From positions 261-64,260 of IMG/VR virus record IMGVR_UViG_3300049455_000007: 64,000 nt of DNA. One strand, written 5' to 3'. The position numbers and the translations under genes were made by a program. Positions 10,278 through 43,278 of this stretch are shown here, piece after piece (within the stretch, counting starts at the first letter, position 1; every line of letters begins with the position of its first letter). This DNA is from a virus (lineage: Duplodnaviria > Caudoviricetes). The notes beneath the pieces are model-generated. The model was not told where the DNA came from, did not search any database, and was given only the letters and a program-made list of their open reading frames with translations.

Positions 10278-10660
10278 GACCCGCCCCTGATGTCGCGGTC
10301 ATACCAGTGGTTCGGCCCCCCGCACAGGTGGGCGGACAGGCCGTGCTCGCACACTTCCACCGCAGGCTCCGGCCATGGTGCGGAGTTGTAGCCGTCCTCC
10401 CATGCGTCGCACAGTTCCTGAATCTCCCAGTCAGCGGCACCATCGAAGGTGCTTGGGCCGGCAGTCCTGCCGTCCTCCCATACGTCGCCGTCCGACAGTG
10501 GTCTGGTTGACATCTCCACCACGTCGCGGGGAGTGATGGCCCCCGCCCATTCCCCTGACAGTGGCGACTCCTGCGGACTGACTTCACCAGCGGCGATGCC
10601 GTTGGTGGCGTACTCTAGACCGTTGCTCTTGGCCTTCGCCAGTTGTTCAAACCAGTCCAT
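10274..10660 (-). CDS. hypothetical protein
   Basis: RBS AAAGGAG; 128 aa. Confidence 0.75.
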   Translation of the reverse strand: MDWFEQLAKAKSNGLEYATNGIAAGEVSPQESPLSGEWAGAITPRDVVEMSTRPLSDGDVWEDGRTAGPSTFDGAADWEIQELCDAWEDGYNSAPWPEPAVEVCEHGLSAHLCGGPNHWYDRDIRGGS

Positions 10661-15329: not shown

Positions 15330-15501
15330 GAACCTTCCCCGCTATCGCCGCCTCATGGCGCTGTACCGGAAGGTGGACCGGATCGGGAACAACCGGTCCA
15401 ACCATGGCGACTATGCCGGGGCCAACGCCGCATGGCATCGTGCCGCACAGATCAAACATGCCGCGCAGGACCTGCGCGTCGCTGGCTCGAACGGCAAATA
15501 G
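15313..15501 (+). CDS. small hypothetical protein
   Basis: TTG start with GGAGG RBS; start uncertain. Confidence 0.45.
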   Translation: MHVPDENLPRYRRLMALYRKVDRIGNNRSNHGDYAGANAAWHRAAQIKHAAQDLRVAGSNGK

Positions 15502-15519
15502 CAGACGGCCGACCGTCTG
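15502..15519. promoter_or_regulatory. 18-bp palindrome family copy 14
   Basis: CAGACGGCCGACCGTCTG, immediately upstream of RHH gene RBS. Confidence 0.8.
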
Positions 15520-15531
15520 CAAAGGAGCACC

Positions 15532-15687
15532 ATGCCCAGACCCGCCCTCGGGCCGTCCAAGAAGTCCGAAATAGTCTCCGTCCGCCTCACCAAGCGCGAG
15601 GTCGCGGACCTGACCAGCCGGTACGGGTCCGCTGCCAAGGGGCTGCGGGCGCTCTACTCCGCCTCCAAGAGGGAAGCAAAGAAATGA
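15532..15687 (+). CDS. ribbon-helix-helix DNA-binding protein (51 aa)
   Basis: Manual ORF MPRPALGPSKKSEIVSVRLTKREVADLTSRYGSAAKGLRALYSASKREAKK; alternating beta-strand VSVRL then helix; RBS AAGGAG. Confidence 0.6.
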   Translation: MPRPALGPSKKSEIVSVRLTKREVADLTSRYGSAAKGLRALYSASKREAKK

Positions 15688-15965
15688 CTGAGAAGCACTA
15701 CGTGATCGTCCCGTCCATCCAGCGCTTCCGCAACTGGGCGATGGACAATATTCGGGATGAGGAGTGGTCCCATGTCGGTGCCCGCATCCACACGCCCACC
15801 AAGGAGTACCGCGCCGTCACGGCCATGCACCATTTGCGCGGCGCGACCCTGACCCCGGAGACGATCCACTGGGCGGACGGCTGGTTCATGGGCCTGTCCA
15901 ACAATGGTGCTGTCGAGATGGAGCAGTACGTCGAGATGTGCATCGGCGCGGGGCCGGTCAAATGA
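15684..15965 (+). CDS. hypothetical protein
   Basis: MTEKHYVIVPSI..., ATGA overlap. Confidence 0.65.
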   Translation: MTEKHYVIVPSIQRFRNWAMDNIRDEEWSHVGARIHTPTKEYRAVTAMHHLRGATLTPETIHWADGWFMGLSNNGAVEMEQYVEMCIGAGPVK

Positions 15966-16144
15966 GCGAGCAGCCCGACGAACGTCTGCAGCTACAGCTA
16001 CACACCCACATTTCCATGCCCATCAACGCCGACGGCTACGGACCCGAGATGGACGAGGATAAGGTCGTGGACACCATCTGCTGGTCCTGTCTGGAGACAT
16101 GGCCCTGCGCCGCATACCGTTCGGGCCACCCTGCGGGAGAATGA
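15962..16144 (+). CDS. small hypothetical protein
   Basis: MSEQPDERL...CWSCLETWPC; ATGA overlap. Confidence 0.55.
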   Translation: MSEQPDERLQLQLHTHISMPINADGYGPEMDEDKVVDTICWSCLETWPCAAYRSGHPAGE

Positions 16145-16180
16145 ACACAGTCCCGCCTCCGCTGAAAGAAGGAACACCCA

Positions 16181-19054
16181 ATGCCTGAAGGTGTGCTCTA
16201 CTGCAGAATCACCGGTCGCCTCCGCGCGATAAGCGGAACGAATGAGGACGGGACGCCCATCTTCCACGGAGCGGCGGGGCGGGGAACCATTACCTGCAAC
16301 ACCCGCGTCACCCGCAACACCACCCCCGGGCAGGTGGAGACGTACTTCCCCGACCCGATCCCGTTCAGTATTGACGCTGACGGGTACATTTCCCGCGATG
16401 GTCTGCCGTTCATTATGGTCATGGCACCGTCCCCCGCGCTGAACCCGCCCGACTTCAACTACCGCATCCGGATCGAGTTCAACAACGGCAAGCGGTACGG
16501 GTCTTACAGCTTCAACGTTGTCCCCGGCGGCGAAGTGGACCTCACCGATGTCATCCCTGTCGCAATAAACGCCGGAGTCCCGTCGGTCATTGGCCCGGCA
16601 GGCCCGCAGGGGGAACCCGGCGCTGACTCGACCGTCCCGGGTCCGCAGGGTCCGACCGGACTGACCGGTCCCCAAGGCCCCACGGGTGCCGACGGCGCGG
16701 ATTCATCGGTGCCCGGACCGGCTGGTCCGCAGGGCGCGCAAGGCCCTCCCGGCTTGGACGGAATGGACGGAGCGGATGGCGCGGATTCCACTGTCCCCGG
16801 TCCTGCCGGTGCCACTGGTCCACAAGGACCCGCTGGAGTGGACGGGGCCGATTCCACGGTTCCCGGCCCGCAGGGACCGCAAGGCCCAGCCGGGGCCGAC
16901 GGCGCTGACTCCACCGTTCCCGGTCCTGCCGGGGCGCAAGGCCCTGCCGGGGCTGATGGCACAGACGGCAATGACGGGGCACCCGGACCAGCCGGGGCCA
17001 CGGGAGCAACCGGAGCAGCGGGTCCCACCGGATTGACCGGGACCACCGGATTGACCGGTCCGCAGGGCGTCAAAGGCGACACGGGTGACGCCGGGCCGAC
17101 GGGAGCCACTGGACCGACCGGACCCACCGGAGCCGATTCCACGGCACCCGGACCTCAGGGTCCGCAGGGACCTGCCGGGGCGGACGGAGCCACTGGCGCA
17201 ACCGGACTCACCGGCCCGGTGGGTTCTACGGGTTCTACCGGCTCTACCGGTGCCGCCGGAGCTACGGGAGCGGCCGGACCGGCCAACACTCTGTCCATCG
17301 GCACGGTCACCACCGGAGCCGCCGGTTCCAGCGCAGCGGCAGCCATCACCGGAACCGCGCCCAGCCAGACCCTCGGCCTGACCATCCCCACCGGAGCCAC
17401 CGGAGCAACTGGCCCCACGGGTGCCGACGGCCCCACCGGGTCCGCCGGGTCCACTGGAGCGGCGGGAGCCACTGGTATCCAAGGCATCCAAGGTCCGACA
17501 GGAGCCACGGGTTCTACCGGAGCAACCGGCTCGACGGGTGCAACCGGCCCGGCGGGGTCCACCGTCCTGTCCGGCATGACCGACGCATCCATCACCTCCC
17601 CGGCCAACACTGATGTGCTCTCGTACGACTCCTCCATCTCGAAGTGGAAAAACGCGCCCGTCCCGGTAGGCCCATCGCCGTCGGTAAGGGCGTCGTCCAC
17701 CAACTCAGGTTCCTCAGGAACCAGCGCGTCGGTGACGGTGCCTGCCACCGCAGTCGTCGGCGACGTTCTGCTGATGTTCGTAGGTTCCAATTACGCCGCG
17801 AACTCGGGTCCCTCCGGCTGGACGGCCCTCAGTGTGACGAGCGGAGGCTGGCACAATGCTGCCGTCTACTCGAAAATTTGCGCATCGGGTGACATTGGCG
17901 CGACGGTGTCAGCCACCTTGGCAGGATCAGAGTTTTGGGATGCTCACTGCTTGGTGGTGAAGGACACCGACGGCATCGTCAACGTGGCGGCAACTCAGAC
18001 GATTGCCTCGCAGGACACTCTGGCGACCTTAGGAGTGCAGGGCTGGACTCAGCGGGACACCATCTTCATGTTCGGCTCAGCCCGCAAGGCGAACAGCAGT
18101 GTGACTTTCCCGTCGCCTGCCGTGAACGTGACCTCGCGTCCGGCGACTGAGTCTCTCGGATCGGCGGTTTACCGGAGTGCGCCACCCGGGGTTCCGGTTA
18201 CTCCAACGACAACGGCCACCTATACGGCCACGAGTGTCGGAACGGGCACGGCCTCGGGGTTTGGCGTCGCTGTACTGCGGGCTGTCGCACTCGGGACGCA
18301 GGGAACACCGGCGTCGATCACTTCGATCAACGACACAACGGGTTCATCGACGACGCCATCGTTTAAAGTCTGGACCAACGTTGCTTCGACCACGGACCCG
18401 GTCATCTGGTCCGACTCCTCGGGTACGTCAAACCGCACCAGCCTGCGGGCGTCCGTCGGAATCAGCGCCAGCCAGAGCGCACTCGAAGCAGGTGTCTATT
18501 CCGGAGGAACCTTCTACAAGAGGTTCGCCGTTTCGGGCGGCGGTGCCATCACGCGGCTGAACGATGTCGACTTCACCGTCGCGGCAAGCAACGCCAACCC
18601 GCAGGACATGATTGCGGCCGGGGTGTACGGCCAGACCACCACCTTCGACCGGGGCATGACGTTCCTGAAACGGAACAACACCGGATCGTACTGGCCCGCG
18701 TGGAACTTCCACCCGTACGGCTACTTCGGCCAGCCGCTCACCCAGACCTCGAACTACACGTTCGAACCCCGGGATTCCGCGGCCATCATGAACGGCTCGT
18801 CCCTGACCTGCACGCTCCCGGACCCGACATCCACGGGTATCTCCGGGCGCAAGTACGAAATCAAGAACATCCACGCCACCGCAGCGTCGGTCGCCTCGGC
18901 GGGTACGTCCAAGACCATCGACGGGGCAGCGAGCGTATCGCTGGCGCAGTGGGAAGCAATCACCGTCATGACCGACGGTGCCGCGTGGTTCATCATCAAC
19001 AAGGTCGCAGCACCCAGCCCGGCCATCGCACTCTCACTCGTCTTCGGAGGATAA
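16181..19054 (+). CDS. collagen-like fibre / minor virion protein 1 (957 aa)
   Basis: Long Gly-X-Y tract (about aa 140-460) flanked by N-terminal anchor-type and C-terminal beta-rich domains. Confidence 0.85.
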
Positions 19055-19423: not shown

Positions 19424-20106
19424 GGCCGTCAGTGAAGGGGGCTGACCTTATTGCCGCCGCAGCCGCTGGCGGGAATGCGGCATACCGGGACAGCGGGCTT
19501 ACTTGGGGAACCAGCGCCTCGGCCAACCAATGGACGCCCAACGGAACCGTAGCGGGTGACCTGCTGGTGTACTTCGTCTGGTCTGCCGGTACGACGGTGG
19601 TGGCCGGGCCGAATGCTCAGGGGGCTTGGGCACTGGCGGCTGCCACGTCCGGGGCTAACCTTCTTGGCACCGAGCAGAACCTTGCCGTGTACCTCAAGAC
19701 GGCCGTGGCAGCGGACGCTGGTTCAGGCAACCATCCCACTTTCACGCTCGGAGCCTCCGCCGACTGGTACGTGGCCAGTGTGGCAGTGTCCGGCTGGACG
19801 AAAGTGTCCGCCGCCGCGGTGGCACGGTCTGATTCATCGGGCACCCGCCTCGATTTCGGGGCGCTCCCGGGAATGCGGGCCGGTGACCTTGAGGTGTTCC
19901 TCGGGGCCGGTCGCGTAGGCAATCTGGAAGTCACTGTCGCAGGGGCCACGACCCGGCAAAAGCGGACCAACGATCCGAACCTGTCCATCGCCCTCGCCAC
20001 CGGCGCAGGCGCAATCTCTAACTTCGGCAGTCCCCTTCTTGGTGCCCACACGCTGGGCTCTGACTCGGCGACCAGTTGGATCATAGGCAGCGTATCCATC
20101 TCGTAA
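19420..20106 (+). CDS. fibre-associated minor structural protein
   Basis: GDLLVYFV pattern like the GDVLLMFV module in the fibre; Ala/Gly/Thr-rich. Confidence 0.65.
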   Translation: MRPSVKGADLIAAAAAGGNAAYRDSGLTWGTSASANQWTPNGTVAGDLLVYFVWSAGTTVVAGPNAQGAWALAAATSGANLLGTEQNLAVYLKTAVAADAGSGNHPTFTLGASADWYVASVAVSGWTKVSAAAVARSDSSGTRLDFGALPGMRAGDLEVFLGAGRVGNLEVTVAGATTRQKRTNDPNLSIALATGAGAISNFGSPLLGAHTLGSDSATSWIIGSVSIS

Positions 20107-20114
20107 GGAGAAAA

Positions 20115-20696
20115 ATGAAAGCAGTGAGATTCGCGAAGGGGGTGCAGCCACTCCTAGTGCCGATTGAATCGGTCCACCAACACCAGAGCAATCCGAACAA
20201 CGGCGACCTCGATGCGCTGATTGAGTCCATACAGGTCAACGGTTTCGTAACCGCCGTCACCGCCGACGCCAAGACCGGCAACATCATCGCCGGGAACCAC
20301 AGATATCAGGCACTGCACGCACTCGGGGCCAAGGAAATCCCGGTCATCTGGGTCGACCACATGGACGAGACTGGCGCGGTCCGCTACATGGTCGCGGACA
20401 ACCGCACCGGCAAGCTCGCCATCCTCGACGACACCGCTGTGGCAGCCCTGCTCACCGGGCTGAACGAAACCGACCTCGGGCTGGCCGGTACGGGCTACGA
20501 CGAATCCGCGTACCAGCGCCTGCTGCTGGAAATGAACTCGGACCCCGAAATCCCCGGTGGCGGGTTCGGGGACGCCGCTCCCTCGGGGCTGTATCAGGTC
20601 ATCGTGGACTTCGAGGAGGACCGGGATTCGCGGGATACCCTGTTCGCCGAACTGGCCGAACGCTTCCCTGAGCAGGCCCGCGTGGCGGACCTGTGA
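20115..20696 (+). CDS. ParB/Srx N-terminal domain protein
   Basis: NPN..D.DALIESIQVNGF...IIAGNHRYQALHALG...ADNRT; no HTH visible. Confidence 0.85.
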   Translation: MKAVRFAKGVQPLLVPIESVHQHQSNPNNGDLDALIESIQVNGFVTAVTADAKTGNIIAGNHRYQALHALGAKEIPVIWVDHMDETGAVRYMVADNRTGKLAILDDTAVAALLTGLNETDLGLAGTGYDESAYQRLLLEMNSDPEIPGGGFGDAAPSGLYQVIVDFEEDRDSRDTLFAELAERFPEQARVADL

Positions 20697-21409
20697 AATA
20701 CATGGGCGGCAAGACCCGCGTGGCATCGCAAATCTGCGCCGTCATGCGTGCCCGCAGCAGGGGTTCGGACACCTACGTGGAACCCTTCCTTGGCGGCGGG
20801 TCCGTGGCTGCGCTCATGGCCCCCGAGTTCAGGACGGTCCACCTGTCCGATGCCAACGAATCCCTCGTCATGCTCTGGCAGGAAGTCCTGTCCGGCTGGA
20901 AACCACCGGGGCACATCACTAAGCCGCAGTGGGAGGCGCTGCGGGCAGACGTACGACCGTCTGCCCTGAAGGCGCTTGCCGGGTTCGCGGCATCCTTCGG
21001 GGGCAAGTGGTTCGCCGGGTACGCCTCCAGCCCGGGACGGAACTACGTCGCCGGGTCCACCCGGCAACTGGTGAAGCACGCGAGCGGGTTCCGGCACGCC
21101 GAAGTCAGGCACCTCGACTACATCGAGGCCGGAGCGTTCGTTGGCCCCGGCACCGTCGTCTACTGCGACCCCCCATATGAGGGCACCACCGGATACGGCG
21201 CGGTCGGGTCATTCCACTCCGCGCAGTTCTGGGACACGATGCGGGAATGGACCGGGCGCGGGGCCAAGGTCTTCGTCTCGGAGTACACCGCCCCCGATGA
21301 CTTCGTGCCGGTGTGGCGGCTGAAGGTTCAGGTGTCACTGGCCAAGGACGGCAACACCGATATCGGAACCGAGCAACTGTTCACGTACCGGGAAGGAACC
21401 AATGGGTGA
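20693..21409 (+). CDS. DNA adenine methyltransferase (Dam/D12 class)
   Basis: MKYMGGK, YVEPFLGGGSV (motif I), VYCDPPY (motif IV). Confidence 0.9.
   Translation: MKYMGGKTRVASQICAVMRARSRGSDTYVEPFLGGGSVAALMAPEFRTVHLSDANESLVMLWQEVLSGWKPPGHITKPQWEALRADVRPSALKALAGFAASFGGKWFAGYASSPGRNYVAGSTRQLVKHASGFRHAEVRHLDYIEAGAFVGPGTVVYCDPPYEGTTGYGAVGSFHSAQFWDTMREWTGRGAKVFVSEYTAPDDFVPVWRLKVQVSLAKDGNTDIGTEQLFTYREGTNG
20946..20963. promoter_or_regulatory. 18-bp palindrome family copy 15
   Basis: CAGACGTACGACCGTCTG inside methyltransferase gene. Confidence 0.75.
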
Positions 21410-24294: not shown

Positions 24295-26166
24295 ATGGCA
24301 CGGACCCGCAGGGATGAGACACCGAAGACCAATTCTCTTGTGGCGTCGGCGGCGCGGATCGGCAAGAGCGGGCAGAAAAGCTATACCCGCATCGCCGAAT
24401 CCATTGCGTGGCAGGAGGAGTCGTGGCGTTTCTACAACACCATCGGCGAGTTCCGCTACATCTGCGACTGGGTTGGCTCCATGCTTTCCAAGGCACTGCT
24501 GTACGCCACCGTAAAGTCGGGCGGCGAACGCACACCGGTCAAGAGCGGCCCCGTTGTGGACATCATGGAGTCCCTGTTCACCGATGACGACGGCCGCGCC
24601 GAGATGCTCCGCCAGATCGGCATCCACATGTCCGTCACCGGGGAGCTTTACATCGTCTCCTACCCGAACCCGGACCAGTTCGGCGGGGTCGACGATGTGT
24701 GGGAGATAGCGACACCGTCCGAAATCAACAAGGCCGACGGCGGCAAGTGGCGGGTCAACGAGAAGATTCTCGACATGGACCCTGACGACGTGCTCGTCAT
24801 CCGCGTTTGGCGTCCGGACCCCAAGAAGCCCATGCGGGCAACCGCACCCGCGAAGGCAGTGCTGCCGATCCTTGGGGAGATTTACGGCCTCACCCAGCAT
24901 GTCGCCGCGCAGATTGACTCCCGGCTTGCAGGCGCTGGCATCCTGCTGGTGCCTTCGGAGATGACCTTCCCGGCCCCGCCCCCCCTTGATGGGCAGCCCG
25001 AGCGCGTCGCCAATGATGCCGAGGACCTGATGCGGGTGCTCGCTGATGCAATGGCAGCGTCCATCCAGAACCGTGAGGACGCATCGGCGCTGGTGCCCAT
25101 CGTCATCAAAGCTCCCGCCGATGCCATCGCCGCGATCAAGCACCTGACGTTCTGGACGCAACTGGACGAGCACTCCATCGAACTGCGCAAGGAAGCGATC
25201 AGCCGCCTCGCCCTCGGCATGGACCTGCCCCCCGAGATTCTGCACGGGCTGTCGCGGACGAACCACTGGTCGGCATGGCAGGTGGATGAGGCTGCGATTA
25301 AGTCGCACACCGAGCCGCTGCTGAAGCTGGTCACCACGGCACTCGCGCAGGGCTACCTGCGTCCGCTGCTTCTGGATGAGAAGACCATCGACCCGGTCAC
25401 GCTGCGCACCTACAGCATTGGCGCGGACTCCTCCGAGATGCGGCTGCGGCCCGACCGTTCCAAGGAAGCAATGGAACTGTACGACCGGGGCGAAATGTCC
25501 GGGGAGGCGCTGCTGCGCGAAACCGGCTTCGATCTGCAGGACGCCATGGACGACGCGGAGCGTCAGAACTGGCTGCTGCGCAAGGTCGCCTCCGGCTCCA
25601 CGACCCCGGACATGGTTGACGCCGCCCTGCGCGCACTCGGGCTGGACCTTGCTGTGGTCCGGGATTCCTCCGGCGAACAGCCCGGCTATCCGGTCGATAC
25701 GCAGGAGGCCAGACCCGCGCCGTCACTGCAGGATCATCCGGTCAAAGACATCCCCAACCGGGAAATATCGCAGCGCCGGGGCGATGCCCGGGAGCAGGGG
25801 GGCGTACCCTCCGCAGACCGCACGTCCGCCGCCGCCCTGATCGCCGCCTCCGAGCAGGTAGTGGTCCGGGCGCTGGAGCGCGCCGGGAACAAGTTGAAGA
25901 ACAAGATGCAGGTGAAGCCATCCTGTGCTGCGACCGACATCTATAAGTTCATCAAGAGCGAGGACACCGCGTTCCTCCTCGATGATGCGTGGACCCATGT
26001 GGCCACCATTGCCGAGCGCCACCACATACCCGGCGGCTGGCTCGAAGGTGTCCTGAGCGACTACTGCACGCAACTGCTGCGGGATCAGACGCCGCACAGC
26101 TTCGGGTCCTTCAACACCTACATGGTGACCAATCTGATGCTCGCTGAGGAGAAGGTGCCCGCATGA
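24295..26166 (+). CDS. portal protein
   Basis: 623 aa after TerL; WQEESWRFY...GEFRY, DSRLAGAGILLVP, NHWSAW typical of actinophage portals. Confidence 0.85.
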   Translation: MARTRRDETPKTNSLVASAARIGKSGQKSYTRIAESIAWQEESWRFYNTIGEFRYICDWVGSMLSKALLYATVKSGGERTPVKSGPVVDIMESLFTDDDGRAEMLRQIGIHMSVTGELYIVSYPNPDQFGGVDDVWEIATPSEINKADGGKWRVNEKILDMDPDDVLVIRVWRPDPKKPMRATAPAKAVLPILGEIYGLTQHVAAQIDSRLAGAGILLVPSEMTFPAPPPLDGQPERVANDAEDLMRVLADAMAASIQNREDASALVPIVIKAPADAIAAIKHLTFWTQLDEHSIELRKEAISRLALGMDLPPEILHGLSRTNHWSAWQVDEAAIKSHTEPLLKLVTTALAQGYLRPLLLDEKTIDPVTLRTYSIGADSSEMRLRPDRSKEAMELYDRGEMSGEALLRETGFDLQDAMDDAERQNWLLRKVASGSTTPDMVDAALRALGLDLAVVRDSSGEQPGYPVDTQEARPAPSLQDHPVKDIPNREISQRRGDAREQGGVPSADRTSAAALIAASEQVVVRALERAGNKLKNKMQVKPSCAATDIYKFIKSEDTAFLLDDAWTHVATIAERHHIPGGWLEGVLSDYCTQLLRDQTPHSFGSFNTYMVTNLMLAEEKVPA

Positions 26167-28445
26167 TCCGCACAGACCGCTTTACGGTTGACGTAGACAC
26201 CTTCGCCGCAGACCGGAGGAACATCCTCGAACGCTCCGACGCCCGGTTCGCCGGTCCCGTCCGCACATCCCTGATCCGGCTGGGCCTGCCCCGCTGGGAC
26301 GAGAACATCATCTCGATGGCGCTGGACATTTTCGACGAGACGGCCCGTTCCGAAATCGACCAGTGGAACCCGATCATCGACGACATGCGCGATGAGTTCA
26401 AGCGGGAACTTGGTGCGGCCCTCGCCAAGACGAAGGCTGCCCCGCCAGAGCAGTTCGACGTGCAGGTCGAGCGCATGACGAAGTGGCTCTCCACCTACTC
26501 CGTGAACGCCGGGACCGAAGCGGCAACCACCTCCGATACCGAAACGCACGTCGGGCTGGAGTGGGTCACGATGGACGACTCGCACGTACGTGATACGCAT
26601 AGAGAGGCCAGAGGCGAGACAGTCCCTTCCGGTCAGCCGTTTGAGGTCGGCGGGTTTGAACTGCTTTATCCGGGTCAACCAGTAGGACCCCCAGAAATCT
26701 GGATCAACTGTAGATGTGTTGCTCGTCCGGCCATGCTGGAAGGATTCAAGGTGAAAACCACAGAGTTCACATCAGAGGAGCAGCAGACGGTCGACCGTCT
26801 GCCGGAAGATTCACCAGATTCACCAGATTCACCGGGATTCACCTCGGTCACCGCCGCTGTAGAACCTGCGCCGGTGGTCCCTGCACCGATGATGCCAGTG
26901 GAGCAGAAGAAGGAACCCGTGCCTTGGTACGGTGTGCTCGCCCCGGAGGGCACCCCCTCCGGGGACGGGAGGCAGTTCGACGTGAACGGCCTGACCCACC
27001 GTGATCTGCCACTGCCACTGAAGGCGATGTTCGTGGACGACGATGGCCACAAGGGTTCAGTCATCGTGGGCCGCATCGACAACATCTTCCGCGACGGTGG
27101 CCTCGTCAAGGGTGAAGGTGTCTTTGATGACTCCGCGTTAGCCGCCGAGACGGTCCGCATGCTGGCCGAAGGCATGTGGCGCGGAGTGTCCGTGGACATC
27201 GACGACATGCAGGCCACGCTTTCCGAGGATGGGTCGGTATCGTCTGCCAGTGGGCGCATCTGTGCAGCTACCATCTGCGCCATCCCTGCCTTCGCGGAAG
27301 CATTCGTCGGGCTGGGCCGCTGGGCTGACGTTCGGCAGACGGTCGACCAACTGCCCGGGGAGGATGTTTCACGTGAAACATCCTTCGCGTCAGAGGGGTC
27401 ATGGGATGGGAGCGCCTCCCGGTTCTCCAACGAACAGTGGAAGAAGTCCTGCATCCTGCACGTCTGCGATGGTCCTGAAAAGTCGTGCCATAAACTGCCC
27501 ATCCGCGAGCCGGGCGGGGCACTCTCCCGCGCCGGGGTGCACGCCGCTGCCGGACGGATCGGTCAGGCACACGGAACCCCCGAGCAGATCGCTGCCGCTA
27601 AGTCGAAGCTGCGCGGTGCGTACAAGGAACTGGGCGAAACACCGCCGGACAGCCTGACGGCTGCACACACAGGAGAGATGATGACACTCACAGCAGCAGT
27701 CGAAGCCCCGGTCCTTCCCGCCGACTGGTTCAAGGACCCGGCCCTGCCCGGTCCCACCCCGTTCACAGTCACGGACGACGGGCGCGTGTACGGGCACGTT
27801 GCCACATGGGAGGCGTGCCACATCGGCCAGCCCATGACTGAGACCGAGTGCACCACCGCGCCGCACTCCGAGACAAACTACGCATACTTCCTCACCGGGG
27901 AAGTGCAGACCGATGTCGGCCCGGTCAACGTCGGCCAGATCACCATGGGTGGCGGGCACGCCAGCGACCGCATGGGGGTCCGGGCTGCGACCAGCCACTA
28001 CGATTCCACCTCCAGCGCCGTCGCGGACGTGACTGCCGGGGAGGACGAGTACGGTATCTGGGTCGCCGGGGCGCTGCGCTCCAGTGTCTCGGATGAGGAA
28101 ATTCATGCCCTGCGTGCCGCCGCGATTTCCGGAGACTGGCGTCGGGTGGCGATCGGCCGGGAAGGGAATCTGGAGATGGTCGCGGCGCTGGCCGTCAACG
28201 TCCCGGGCTTCCCGATCCCGCGCCCGTCCATGCTGGTTGCTTCCGGCGGCGAGGCGATGTCACTGGTGGCGGCTTCGATCCCGCTGGCGGAAGGGCAGGA
28301 CACGGGGGATAGCATTGAGATTCCGTCGACTCCGGCGGAGAAGTTCAACGCAGCGCGTGCCAAGTTCCGGCACCTTCAGGTTGCGCGGGCGAAGACAGCG
28401 TTTGTCGTGGATGAACAGGTACTGACGAGTGTGGGCGGAGAGTAG
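26163..28445 (+). CDS. MuF-like / capsid maturation protease fusion
   Basis: MuF motif WVTMDDSHVRDTH...INCRC; protease region GVLAPEG..SGDGR...GVSVD; extra C-terminal domains. Confidence 0.85.
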   Translation: MIRTDRFTVDVDTFAADRRNILERSDARFAGPVRTSLIRLGLPRWDENIISMALDIFDETARSEIDQWNPIIDDMRDEFKRELGAALAKTKAAPPEQFDVQVERMTKWLSTYSVNAGTEAATTSDTETHVGLEWVTMDDSHVRDTHREARGETVPSGQPFEVGGFELLYPGQPVGPPEIWINCRCVARPAMLEGFKVKTTEFTSEEQQTVDRLPEDSPDSPDSPGFTSVTAAVEPAPVVPAPMMPVEQKKEPVPWYGVLAPEGTPSGDGRQFDVNGLTHRDLPLPLKAMFVDDDGHKGSVIVGRIDNIFRDGGLVKGEGVFDDSALAAETVRMLAEGMWRGVSVDIDDMQATLSEDGSVSSASGRICAATICAIPAFAEAFVGLGRWADVRQTVDQLPGEDVSRETSFASEGSWDGSASRFSNEQWKKSCILHVCDGPEKSCHKLPIREPGGALSRAGVHAAAGRIGQAHGTPEQIAAAKSKLRGAYKELGETPPDSLTAAHTGEMMTLTAAVEAPVLPADWFKDPALPGPTPFTVTDDGRVYGHVATWEACHIGQPMTETECTTAPHSETNYAYFLTGEVQTDVGPVNVGQITMGGGHASDRMGVRAATSHYDSTSSAVADVTAGEDEYGIWVAGALRSSVSDEEIHALRAAAISGDWRRVAIGREGNLEMVAALAVNVPGFPIPRPSMLVASGGEAMSLVAASIPLAEGQDTGDSIEIPSTPAEKFNAARAKFRHLQVARAKTAFVVDEQVLTSVGGE
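26784..26801. promoter_or_regulatory. 18-bp palindrome family copy 16
   Basis: Perfect CAGACGGTCGACCGTCTG in MuF-protease linker. Confidence 0.8.
26808..26843 (+). repeat. 9-bp tandem repeat GATTCACC(A/G) x4
   Basis: Encodes DSPDSPDSPG linker directly after palindrome copy 16. Confidence 0.7.
27336..27353. promoter_or_regulatory. 18-bp palindrome family copy 17
   Basis: CAGACGGTCGACCAACTG, 11 bp from parS. Confidence 0.8.
27365..27380. promoter_or_regulatory. parS: perfect bacterial parS site
   Basis: TGTTTCACGTGAAACA, within 24-bp perfect palindrome 27361-27384; reads DVSRETS in protein. Confidence 0.85.
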
Positions 28446-28741: not shown

Positions 28742-30400
28742 ATGGGTGCCTTTGTAATCCCAACGGACATCGAGTCGCTTGATTCCGACGCCCTCGTTGA
28801 AGCCGTAGACGGCGCATTCGCCGCAGGCCGCGCACTTTCCGCGCTCCCTGACGAGCAGATCACCGACGAGCAGGCCGTCGAACTCGACGCCCTCTATGAG
28901 TTCCACACCGCAGCTTCCACCGTTCTCGCCGCGCGTCAGAGCGCCGCCGAGGAACGGGCTAACCGCCTTTCCGCCTCCCGCTCCGCCTTCGCCGAGTCCG
29001 CTGTAGAGGACGAAGTGGTTGAGGAAGAGGAGGAAGCCCCGGTAGAAGAGGAGGAAGCCACGGCCCCGACTCCAGTCAAGGACACCGCAAGTGCCCGTCG
29101 CTCCTTCGCTTCCCGCGCCGCACGCGCCACCCCGCCTGCGCAGAAGAAGGTCGCGGTCCACACCGCGCCCAGCGCCTCGCTGACCGCCGCCGCGGACGTG
29201 CCGTCATTCTCCGCCGGGCAGAAGTTCGACAACCTCAATGAGGCCGCCAAGGCCATCGGCGTGTCACTGAACAACCTGCCCAAGAACGCCCCCAAGGGGA
29301 CCTTCAGCCGCAACGGCGCAGTGGTTATCACCCTGCCGGAGAATAAGTTCAACCAGAACGAGTACCGCGGCCGGGACTCCGAGATGCTCCTTGACGCGGC
29401 CAAGGAGTCCCGCCTTGAAGGCGGCTCGCTCGTCGCGGCCGGTGGCTGGGGTGCGCCCTCGGAAATCATCATGGACTTCTGCTCCGGCGAAACCACGGAC
29501 GGGCTGATCAGCCTTCCCGAGGTCACCATCACCCGCGGTGGTGTCCAGTACACCAAGGGTCCGACCTTCGCTGACGTGATGGCTGCGACCACCGGCTTCT
29601 GGGACATGACCGAAGCCACCGCCGAGGCGGGCACCGAACAGAAAACCTCGCTGCGCCCGGAGATCCCGGACTTCGTCGAGAAGCGCCTCGACGCAGTCGG
29701 CGTCATGATCGAGTCCGGCCTGCTGCTCCGTCAGGGCTGGCCGGAAGTCATCGCCCGCTACGCCGAACTGGCCCTCGTCGTGCACCAGTACAAGATGCAC
29801 GCCAAGACGATCAACCAGATTCTCGCCTTCACCGGCGCGGCCGTCCCCGTTCCGAACGGTTTCGGCAACGCCGTGGACGTACTGAACGTCCTCGACGTGG
29901 TCGCCTACGGCGAGCGCCAGCGCACCGCGCTGGCCGAGAACGCCACCCTCGAAGTGGTGCTTCCCCGCTGGGTGAAGGGCGTCCTGAAGGCCGACCTCGC
30001 TAACCGCATGGGCGCGGACATCGAGTTCTTCAACATCACGGACGCACAGATTGATGCTTGGCTCGCCGCCCGGGGCCTCCGGGTGCAGTGGCTGGCCTAC
30101 TGGCAGAACTTGGACACGGACACGGACGGGATTGCCACCAAGTACCCGGCCACCGTCGAGGCGATCATGTACCCGGCCGGTACGTACGTCCGTGGCACCT
30201 CCCCTGTCATCACGCTGGACACCGTGTACGACTCCGTGAACCTGAAGAACAACGACTACGTGCACCTCTTCACCGAGCAGGGCACCGTCGTGACCAATCC
30301 GTGCTACACCGGACGCCGCATCTCGCTCCCGCTTGTTGCCAACGGACGTACGGGTGCTGCTGACCTCACCGGCGGCCTCTTCGTTGACCCCACCCCGTAA
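28742..30400 (+). CDS. major capsid (hexamer) protein with N-terminal scaffold region
   Basis: Acidic coiled-coil N-terminus, SLVAAGGWGAPSEIIMDFC, RGGVQY; position. Confidence 0.85.
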   Translation: MGAFVIPTDIESLDSDALVEAVDGAFAAGRALSALPDEQITDEQAVELDALYEFHTAASTVLAARQSAAEERANRLSASRSAFAESAVEDEVVEEEEEAPVEEEEATAPTPVKDTASARRSFASRAARATPPAQKKVAVHTAPSASLTAAADVPSFSAGQKFDNLNEAAKAIGVSLNNLPKNAPKGTFSRNGAVVITLPENKFNQNEYRGRDSEMLLDAAKESRLEGGSLVAAGGWGAPSEIIMDFCSGETTDGLISLPEVTITRGGVQYTKGPTFADVMAATTGFWDMTEATAEAGTEQKTSLRPEIPDFVEKRLDAVGVMIESGLLLRQGWPEVIARYAELALVVHQYKMHAKTINQILAFTGAAVPVPNGFGNAVDVLNVLDVVAYGERQRTALAENATLEVVLPRWVKGVLKADLANRMGADIEFFNITDAQIDAWLAARGLRVQWLAYWQNLDTDTDGIATKYPATVEAIMYPAGTYVRGTSPVITLDTVYDSVNLKNNDYVHLFTEQGTVVTNPCYTGRRISLPLVANGRTGAADLTGGLFVDPTP

Positions 30401-42148: not shown

Positions 42149-43278
42149 TGGCGCTGTCATGTGAGGTCCACAGTGCGGAACTCTACGACCGCGGCGGGAA
42201 ACGCAAGATCGGATCGCTGGGGCCGCTGACCCGGGTGAAGTGGGAGCGCCGCCGCGATGACATTTCCATGGCGACGGTGTGGGTGTCCACCGTCAGTCCG
42301 GAGTGCGCACAGGTCCTCGGGCTGCTGGAGACGAACCGCACCGAACTGGTGATCTTCCGCGGCAATAAACGCGTCTGGGAGGGGCCGGTGGAAAGGATCA
42401 CCTATCAAGGCTCCTCCGTGGAGGTTGAGGCGAAGGACGTGATGTTCTACGTCCAGCGCACCATCATGCGCAACGAGTACGACAACCGCTTCCCGAATGT
42501 GGGGCTGGTGCTGGACCGGGTCCAGCGGATCATGACGGCGGAGTTGGCCCGCAAGGAAGCGCTGGACCCGGCCGCGAACATCCTGCCGCACATCCGCTAC
42601 ATCTACTCCACCACCCCCGGAGTCGTGGACGCCCGGACGGCGGCGTGGACTCAGCCGTACGAGATGACGGTGTTCGCCCACGTCGACAACTTAGCGTGGC
42701 GCGGCGGGCTGGACTACACGGTCATCGGGCGATCCATCATGTTCTTCGACGTGCACGCGCGCATCGGCCAGACGCCGATGGTCACCGGGGACGACTTCAT
42801 TGGCGACCCGGTCATCACGCAGTACGGCACGGAACTGACGACGCACGTTGTGATGACGGACGGGAAGGGGCACTGGGGCGAGGCCGGTGGCATTGATCCC
42901 TACTATGGCGAATGGGAAGTGCTCCATCAGGCGTACGACGAGAACGCGGTCGTCGATCCATTGCACAACACCCCGCCGACGGTTGCGGAGATGACTTCGC
43001 AGGCGAAGCGGTCCTACCTTCAGGGGAAGCGCCCGCCTCTGGTTGTCCGCATCCCTGACAACACACGCCTCAACCCGAACGGAGTCCTGACGGTGGATGA
43101 CCTTGTGCCGGGTGTGTGGATTCCACTGACCGCTACCCTGCCGGGTCGCACCCTTAGCCAGATGCAGAAGCTGGATAGTATGACCGTTGAGGAGACCGCA
43201 GGGAACGGCGAGGAAATCAAGGTTGTCCTTTCCCCCGCATATCCCGAAAGCTATGTGGAGGTACCGCCGACGCCATGA
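42148..43278 (+). CDS. minor tail protein (tail hub/Tal-like)
   Basis: W.RRRDDIS.A..., position. Confidence 0.8.
   Translation: MALSCEVHSAELYDRGGKRKIGSLGPLTRVKWERRRDDISMATVWVSTVSPECAQVLGLLETNRTELVIFRGNKRVWEGPVERITYQGSSVEVEAKDVMFYVQRTIMRNEYDNRFPNVGLVLDRVQRIMTAELARKEALDPAANILPHIRYIYSTTPGVVDARTAAWTQPYEMTVFAHVDNLAWRGGLDYTVIGRSIMFFDVHARIGQTPMVTGDDFIGDPVITQYGTELTTHVVMTDGKGHWGEAGGIDPYYGEWEVLHQAYDENAVVDPLHNTPPTVAEMTSQAKRSYLQGKRPPLVVRIPDNTRLNPNGVLTVDDLVPGVWIPLTATLPGRTLSQMQKLDSMTVEETAGNGEEIKVVLSPAYPESYVEVPPTP

Follow-up and report, generated by a model that had tools for sequence, protein, structure and literature searches.

Background

In the virulent Bacillus phages phi29 and Nf, the genome carries parS sites of the host type; in phi29 the host protein Spo0J, acting on these sites, of which the literature counts five, promotes entrapment of the phage genome in the prespore (PMC2731898). 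P1, N15 and the extrachromosomal Cluster A mycobacteriophages instead possess phage or plasmid parABS cassettes (PMC7157519): they encode their own ParA and ParB, keep a private parS beside those genes and are temperate plasmid-prophages. Here we describe a parS sequence of the chromosomal type that lies inside the gene for the capsid maturation protease of an uncultured soil virus of the class Caudoviricetes (IMG/VR record IMGVR_UViG_3300049455_000007). The window analysed is a stretch of 64,000 nucleotides, namely bases 261-64260 of this record, which measures 64,260 bp, has direct terminal repeats and a completeness rating of 100%.

The same 16-mer is the chromosomal parS of the mycobacteria M. 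tuberculosis and M. smegmatis (PMC2346475) and of Corynebacterium; in C. glutamicum a single site supports ParB spreading over about 32 kb and SMC loading (PMC7083940), and in Corynebacterium ParB-parS is tethered to polar DivIVA (PMC4255298). Chromosomal sites form clusters near oriC and are mostly intergenic, whereas the phage site, identical to the actinobacterial one over its 16 bp, stands alone and forms part of the reading frame of a late structural gene.

The closest described system is phi29, which is likewise a virulent phage with no ParA or ParB of its own and with host chromosomal parS inside its genes. In the phi29 record (NC_011048.1) we find four identical TGTTTCACGTGGAACA sites, at 10445, 15903, 17243 and 18760, one of them at the 3' end of the connector (portal) gene, a parallel to the portal C-terminal copy of the Arthrobacter phage Ranunculus described below; TGTTTCACGTGGAACA has the same GGAAC variant that is met in relatives of the studied phage. 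The two systems differ in that phi29 has four to five sites, while the window holds one and the relatives have from none to three; in that no counterpart of the phi29 Spo0A boxes, partner sites for a host regulator, was identified in the studied phage; and in that the actinophage sites are written as (D)VSRET in linkers and recur convergently across several lineages. With the parABS cassettes the studied phage would share a centromere-like site and a ParB-type clamp that positions or partitions the phage genome, but no ParA, ParB bearing a helix-turn-helix (HTH), integrase or repressor was detected in it, and its site is the universal chromosomal consensus. Because of the phi29 precedent, the idea is less novel than the initial annotation of this DNA implied. 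The kind of element is already known; its recurrent in-frame embedding as (D)VSRET and its wide occurrence in cultured phages are possibly unreported. We found no paper that describes a parS of the host type in phages of Arthrobacter, Microbacterium or other Actinobacteria, for which the literature deals with parABS encoded by the phages themselves.

A chromosomal-type parS written into a protease gene

The window has a single exact match to the 16-bp sequence TGTTTCACGTGAAACA (Table 1), which fits the parS consensus TGTTNCACGTGAAACA exactly. When up to three mismatches are allowed it is still the only match, 0.09 being expected from shuffled sequences. The chance of finding a specific 16-mer in 64 kb is 1.5e-5 at uniform composition, a figure that the initial annotation had computed correctly, and about 3e-6 with the real base composition. 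The site has 37.5% guanine and cytosine (GC), against about 63% for the genome, and is surrounded by the perfect 24-bp palindrome AGGATGTTTCACGTGAAACATCCT, whose arms extend imperfectly to 17 nucleotides. Beyond the 16 bp the palindrome is not kept in relatives, while 22 bp of it are common to Microbacterium phages; tested as a host chromosomal consensus, the extended palindrome of 22-24 bp proved not to be one, since the flanks show a preference at position -1 only (T 52%, G 31%).

The codons of the site read D401-V-S-R-E-T-S407 of the protease fusion, in a linker that is rich in indels and lies where modules meet. The site is thus written into a disordered linker of a structural gene, in which the translation (D)VSRET appears to be tolerated. 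The description from which we started, that of a perfect AT-rich parS and 24-bp palindrome in the protease gene, encoding DVSRETS and standing 11 bp from a second, phage-type palindrome, agrees in every element with the sequence; the gap between the two motifs is 27354-27364.

Conservation of the site in related viruses

IMG/VR relatives were gathered through their protease, portal and capsid proteins. All those with at least 62% identity that cover the spot, except one (L004), have GTTTCACGTGAAAC, the 14-bp core of the site, or GTTTCACGTGGAAC at the homologous position, and so does the Arthrobacter phage MellowYellow (54% identity). A search of related phages for positional conservation had been proposed in the initial annotation, and its outcome is favourable: the core is present at the same spot in nine relatives. 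In a codon-aware alignment of nine homologues (54-78% amino acid identity), the core GTTTCACGTG[A/G]AAC is the sole fully conserved block of a linker rich in indels and substitutions.

Valine, serine and arginine are encoded by GTT, TCA and CGT in 9/9 homologues, although in the phage these codons have shares of 9.7%, 7.6% and 11.9% in their families; given the peptide VSRE, the probability of GTT-TCA-CGT-GAA is 3.2e-4. Of 303 invariant amino acid columns, 19.5% have a single codon throughout, nearly always a preferred GC-ending one, and V-S-R at parS is the only three-column run with invariant codons in the alignment. The sole variant of the core among the relatives is a change of A to G that gives a GGAAC half-site, present also in chromosomal parS clusters and in phi29, and that turns glutamate into glycine. 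Since this change alters the peptide and yet yields a natural parS half-site, selection acts on the DNA site and not on the peptide. Moreover, 684 kb of related IMG/VR loci have 7 exact and 8 one-mismatch cores, whereas 419 control palindromes of the same composition gave no exact match. The exact 16-mer is also found in at least 119 IMG/VR contigs, 93 of them with a single site, a count that we set aside as evidence because no chance expectation can be put beside it and because some of these contigs resemble chromosomal origin regions.

On this sequence evidence the element is probably a host-type site kept by purifying selection on DNA, whose most likely function would be to load host ParB on phage DNA.

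Recurrence in cultured phages

A megablast search of cultured phages with the site region gave no match, and relatives are reachable by protein comparison only. The nearest cultured proteins of the protease fusion all come from Arthrobacter phages, at 46-56% identity: MellowYellow, Beagle, Ranunculus, BruhMoment, SilentRX, AWGoat, Tank and Rizwana. To judge from these relatives the host is probably of Arthrobacter type, and an Lsr2-like early protein in the window fits an actinobacterial host.

Nine cultured Arthrobacter phages were scanned over their whole records for the exact 14-bp core, with the reversed pattern as a control. The core is present in seven of the nine, in one to three copies, and the control is absent from every record. 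MellowYellow and Beagle have one exact core each, in the protease gene; Ranunculus has three, one at the portal C-terminus and two in the protease gene; and BruhMoment has three, all in the protease gene. At other loci, Tank and Rizwana each have one exact core and one with a single mismatch, and Mimi, an otherwise very different phage of 192 kb, has two exact cores with identical flanks. The two Mimi copies (MN234211.2, at 19715 and 192375), whose flanks are identical over 14 bp or more in both directions, are part of a repeated segment and so are counted as one independent site.

Within portal and protease genes every copy reads VSRET, mostly after GAT (Asp). Only two readings of the sequence are possible because its third frame contains TGA. 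In Tank, Rizwana and Mimi the coding frame is ambiguous and some copies may be non-coding; the longest open frame across the site gives FHVK in Tank and Mimi, and VSRET in Rizwana.

The site is not confined to these relatives. A 30-nucleotide blastn query around it gave 482 matches among 50,697 cultured phage records, the hosts being Listeria (89), Arthrobacter (84), Clostridium (67), Microbacterium (65), Bacillus (44) and Gordonia (25); host-type parS in phages may be far commoner than the phi29 example suggests. Some matches of this query are Microviridae. Gene 67 of the Microbacterium phage Paschalis (NC_047976.1), annotated 'DNA binding protein' and unrelated to the protease, holds at 42254-42279 the identical 22-bp palindrome GGATGTTTCACGTGAAACATCC, which is common to dozens of Microbacterium phages and which here reads DSDVSRETSV in an acidic linker. 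The in-frame VSRET solution has accordingly arisen or spread in unrelated genes of phages of another genus in the same order.

Which protein reads the site

A system of the parABS type would have adjacent parA and parB genes together with the site. No ParA is present here, and the only ParB-fold gene is 6.7 kb from parS; as in phi29, a ParA or HTH-bearing ParB of the phage's own and a lysogeny module were not found. The product of this gene (Table 1) had been described in the initial annotation as having the N-terminal domain only, and that description holds: its ParB_N match is weak and below the Pfam threshold, its alignment with solved ParB and Noc structures covers the N-domain only, it has GNHR at the place of the ParB arginine patch GERR, and HTH_ParB was not found anywhere in the record with sequence profiles. 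An AlphaFold2 model made from a six-sequence alignment reached a predicted local distance difference test score (pLDDT) of 38.6, too low for use, and the absence of a DNA-binding domain is given by the sequence profiles only. In phages a ParB-fold gene often stands beside a methylase, in a setting that has nothing to do with partition (PMC12704722), and the pair at 20076-21409 is probably a DNA-modification or anti-defence pair and not a partition system.

The parS site could still be read by this protein, or by another DNA-binding protein of the phage, and might then help to organise the genome, to package it or to control late genes. The ParB-fold proteins of phages form a varied group of which little is understood (PMC12704722), and homologues of this one occur in all eight related Arthrobacter phages, while the parS-bearing Microbacterium phages have a similar, homologous N-domain-only ParB protein. 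A phage-encoded reader is nevertheless unlikely. The candidate shows no HTH domain in sequence profiles and has GNHR for GERR; its gene is in the usual methylase-associated setting, beside a D12 methyltransferase; SilentRX and AWGoat have the protein without parS, and Mimi has parS without the protein; and the site is the universal chromosomal sequence, GGAAC variant included, which a private system would have no reason to keep.

Host ParB is the most economical reader, because the phage has neither a ParA nor an HTH-bearing ParB and because the same core is clustered in the chromosomes of the sampled order. In one Microbacterium genome seven exact cores and one variant lie within 4 kb of each other; nine copies of the core are present in a Leucobacter genome. 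In a sample of the order drawn around a Microbacterium genome, a sample that may not include Arthrobacter, the exact core is present in 225/301 genomes and the control in none; the typical copy number is 1-12, clustered within a few kb. No Micrococcaceae were found among the 120 genome matches listed.

Peptide, hairpin or chance

Three further explanations do without a protein that reads the DNA as parS. The first is that the peptide (D)VSRET is itself selected, for instance because the prohead protease cuts there or because head proteins use it as a short linear motif, and that the likeness to parS is incidental. The copies in portal, protease and DNA-binding-protein genes are all in the VSRET frame, usually after Asp, and several of them belong to the portal and the protease, proteins that in other phages are known to be cleaved by protease. 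As only two readings exist, however, VSRET is one of the two, and chromosomal parS is the same sequence; four rare codons are invariant (P ~3e-4 per site), a change of E to G alters the peptide and leaves a valid parS, and in Tank and Mimi the longest frame is FHVK or the site may be non-coding. We regard a selected peptide as very improbable.

Still less probable is an mRNA hairpin formed by the palindrome, which might, for example, pause translation between the MuF and protease modules or serve as an RNase site. A 44-nucleotide stretch in the window does fold at -23.7 kcal/mol (z-score -5.0), but in relatives with the core the same stretch is no more stably folded than shuffled sequences are (z -0.4 to 0.0), so that the long stem is not conserved and only the 14-bp sequence is; the copies are, moreover, in different genes and frames. 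That the site is a product of chance, or a neutral remnant (for example from a host chromosome) not yet decayed, is hardly credible: it is a single copy, it is absent without remnant in some relatives and it lies at a mosaic junction where recombination could have brought it in, but no more than about 1e-5 copies would be expected per genome, the core has persisted in lineages between which synonymous positions are otherwise randomised, and many phages have independent copies while control palindromes give zero exact matches.

A proposed model for the use of host ParB

Taken together, the sequence of the site, the selection on it, its recurrence and the lack of any partition system in the phage lead us to infer that host ParB binds phage DNA, with the consequences set out here in the conditional. 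After injection, a dimer of the host chromosomal ParB would nucleate at parS and close as a CTP-dependent (cytidine triphosphate-dependent) clamp. Such clamps would slide over the flanking DNA, covering a large part of the 64-kb phage genome. The ParB-coated phage DNA could then be treated like the origin-proximal part of the chromosome, with ParA-driven separation, polar tethering by DivIVA and loading of SMC. By analogy with phi29, the likeliest pay-off would be the retention and partition of unintegrated genomes in cells that delay lysis, such as starved, slow-growing or carrier-state cells. Alternatively, hundreds of replicated phage copies might titrate ParB, or the phage DNA might be marked as 'self' against condensins that restrict plasmids. 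The initial annotation had also proposed that host ParB is recruited: what stands of that proposal is a chromosomal-type parS that is under selection, conserved with rare codons and recurrent, and what does not is its gating by an operator (see below).

A wider version of the model is that in-frame (D)VSRET host centromeres in disordered linkers are a widespread convergent strategy for loading host ParB-CTP, and hence SMC, ParA and DivIVA, with a purpose other than spore entrapment. In-frame sites of this kind are seen in lytic phages of the non-sporulating Actinobacteria Arthrobacter and Microbacterium, and the matches of the 30-nucleotide query extend to many phages of Listeria, Clostridium and Bacillus. 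This generalisation is tentative, and we would sooner doubt it than accept it. The purposes may include polar tethering of replication or packaging, carrier-state partition, and a 'self' label against MksBEFG/Wadjet.

Several observations weigh against host ParB as the reader, in addition to the wide occurrence of the phage ParB_N-like protein noted above. SilentRX and AWGoat have no core, nor any remnant in the portal-protease region examined, and no site or remnant is found in the IMG/VR relatives L004, L145 and L146; the site is therefore dispensable. Five actinophages of hosts other than Arthrobacter that have a homologous protease show no exact core and one GTTCC one-mismatch variant. The identity of the host comes from kinship only, and the chromosomal survey given above bears on Arthrobacter only in so far as the sample includes it. 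Arthrobacter and Microbacterium do not form endospores, and for such hosts prespore entrapment is not simply transferable from phi29. Finally, ParB clamps may be poorly retained on a linear genome that has free ends and a single site.

If host ParB does load at the site, this would be a lytic phage that uses the chromosome-segregation machinery of a non-sporulating host, and what is so far a single worked example, that of phi29 with Spo0J and spore entrapment, would gain a counterpart in another phylum with another biology. The question also matters for understanding the behaviour of ParB-CTP clamps and SMC on linear DNA that is small and present in many copies. Testable material exists, since cultured SEA-PHAGES isolates with 0, 1 or 3 sites share the same laboratory host and an in-frame site can be silenced by synonymous recoding. 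As a rule for annotation, GTTTCACGTGAAAC in genes of phages with Firmicutes or Actinobacteria hosts is probably a functional DNA site and not just a run of codons.

The adjacent palindrome and the mosaic junction

Next to parS is a copy of an 18-bp palindrome family of the CAGACGGTCGACCGTCTG type, which has 24 copies across 1546-62921, many of them perfect (for example those at 26784, 27336, 51205 and 60189). The copy in the protease linker is kept beside parS in L002, L003, L142, L147 and L181, often as the perfect variant CAGTTGGTCGACCAACTG, in frame as Q-L-V-D-Q-L. It had been suggested that parS is gated by this adjacent phage operator, which we do not uphold: the gap between the two motifs varies from 11 to about 38 bp among relatives, the palindrome is found beside parS only in the closest of them, and in the phages of Arthrobacter and Microbacterium parS occurs on its own. 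The two motifs may merely share a stretch of gene that is tolerant of foreign codons.

The parS site is at a mosaic junction of the protease fusion. Downstream of it, at 27381-27650 of the window, is a module rich in cysteine and histidine (SWDGSASRF...CHKLPIREPGG), which is present also in L003, L139 and L141 and is replaced by unrelated sequence in L002, L142, L147, L181 and MellowYellow. The junction concerns L132 as well.

Gene setting and lifestyle

The features of the locus are collected in Table 1. Neither a tyrosine integrase, a resolvase nor a ParA-type ATPase (AAA_31) was found in the record, no repressor module was detected in it, and a search of 185,579 species genomes with the protease found no prophage relatives. 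The phage looks lytic, given the lack of integrase, resolvase and ParA genes and of prophage relatives.

Table 1. Features of the parS locus and of the neighbouring genes, in window coordinates
Feature	Position	Strand	Remarks
ParB_N-only (ParB/Srx-fold) protein	20076-20696	+	N-domain match only
D12-class N6-adenine DNA methyltransferase	20693-21409		directly after the ParB_N gene, upstream of the terminase
Portal	24295-26166		upstream neighbour of the MuF-like/protease gene
MuF-like and head/capsid maturation protease fusion	26163-28445	+	760 amino acids
18-bp palindrome, copy 17 of 24	27336-27353		read as part of Q-T-V-D-Q-L
Perfect 24-bp palindrome AGGATGTTTCACGTGAAACATCCT	27361-27384		surrounds parS
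16-bp chromosomal-type parS TGTTTCACGTGAAACA	27365-27380	none	single exact match in the window
14-bp parS core GTTTCACGTGAAAC	27366-27379		kept in relatives
Major capsid protein	28742-30400		third gene in the row portal, protease fusion, capsid

Gene order suggests that the cultured relatives have their left physical end at a point equivalent to about 15.7 kb of the record (region ~15500-16200), and the ParB-like gene is at 20.1 kb in the record against 3.3-4.7 kb in the cultured relatives. This offset of the ParB-like gene suggests that the 'terminal repeat' of the record may be an assembly overlap and not its true ends. Upstream of the packaging genes, there is an open reading frame of 957 amino acids (16181-19054) in which collagen triple-helix repeats make up six stretches (Pfam E 2.8e-34).

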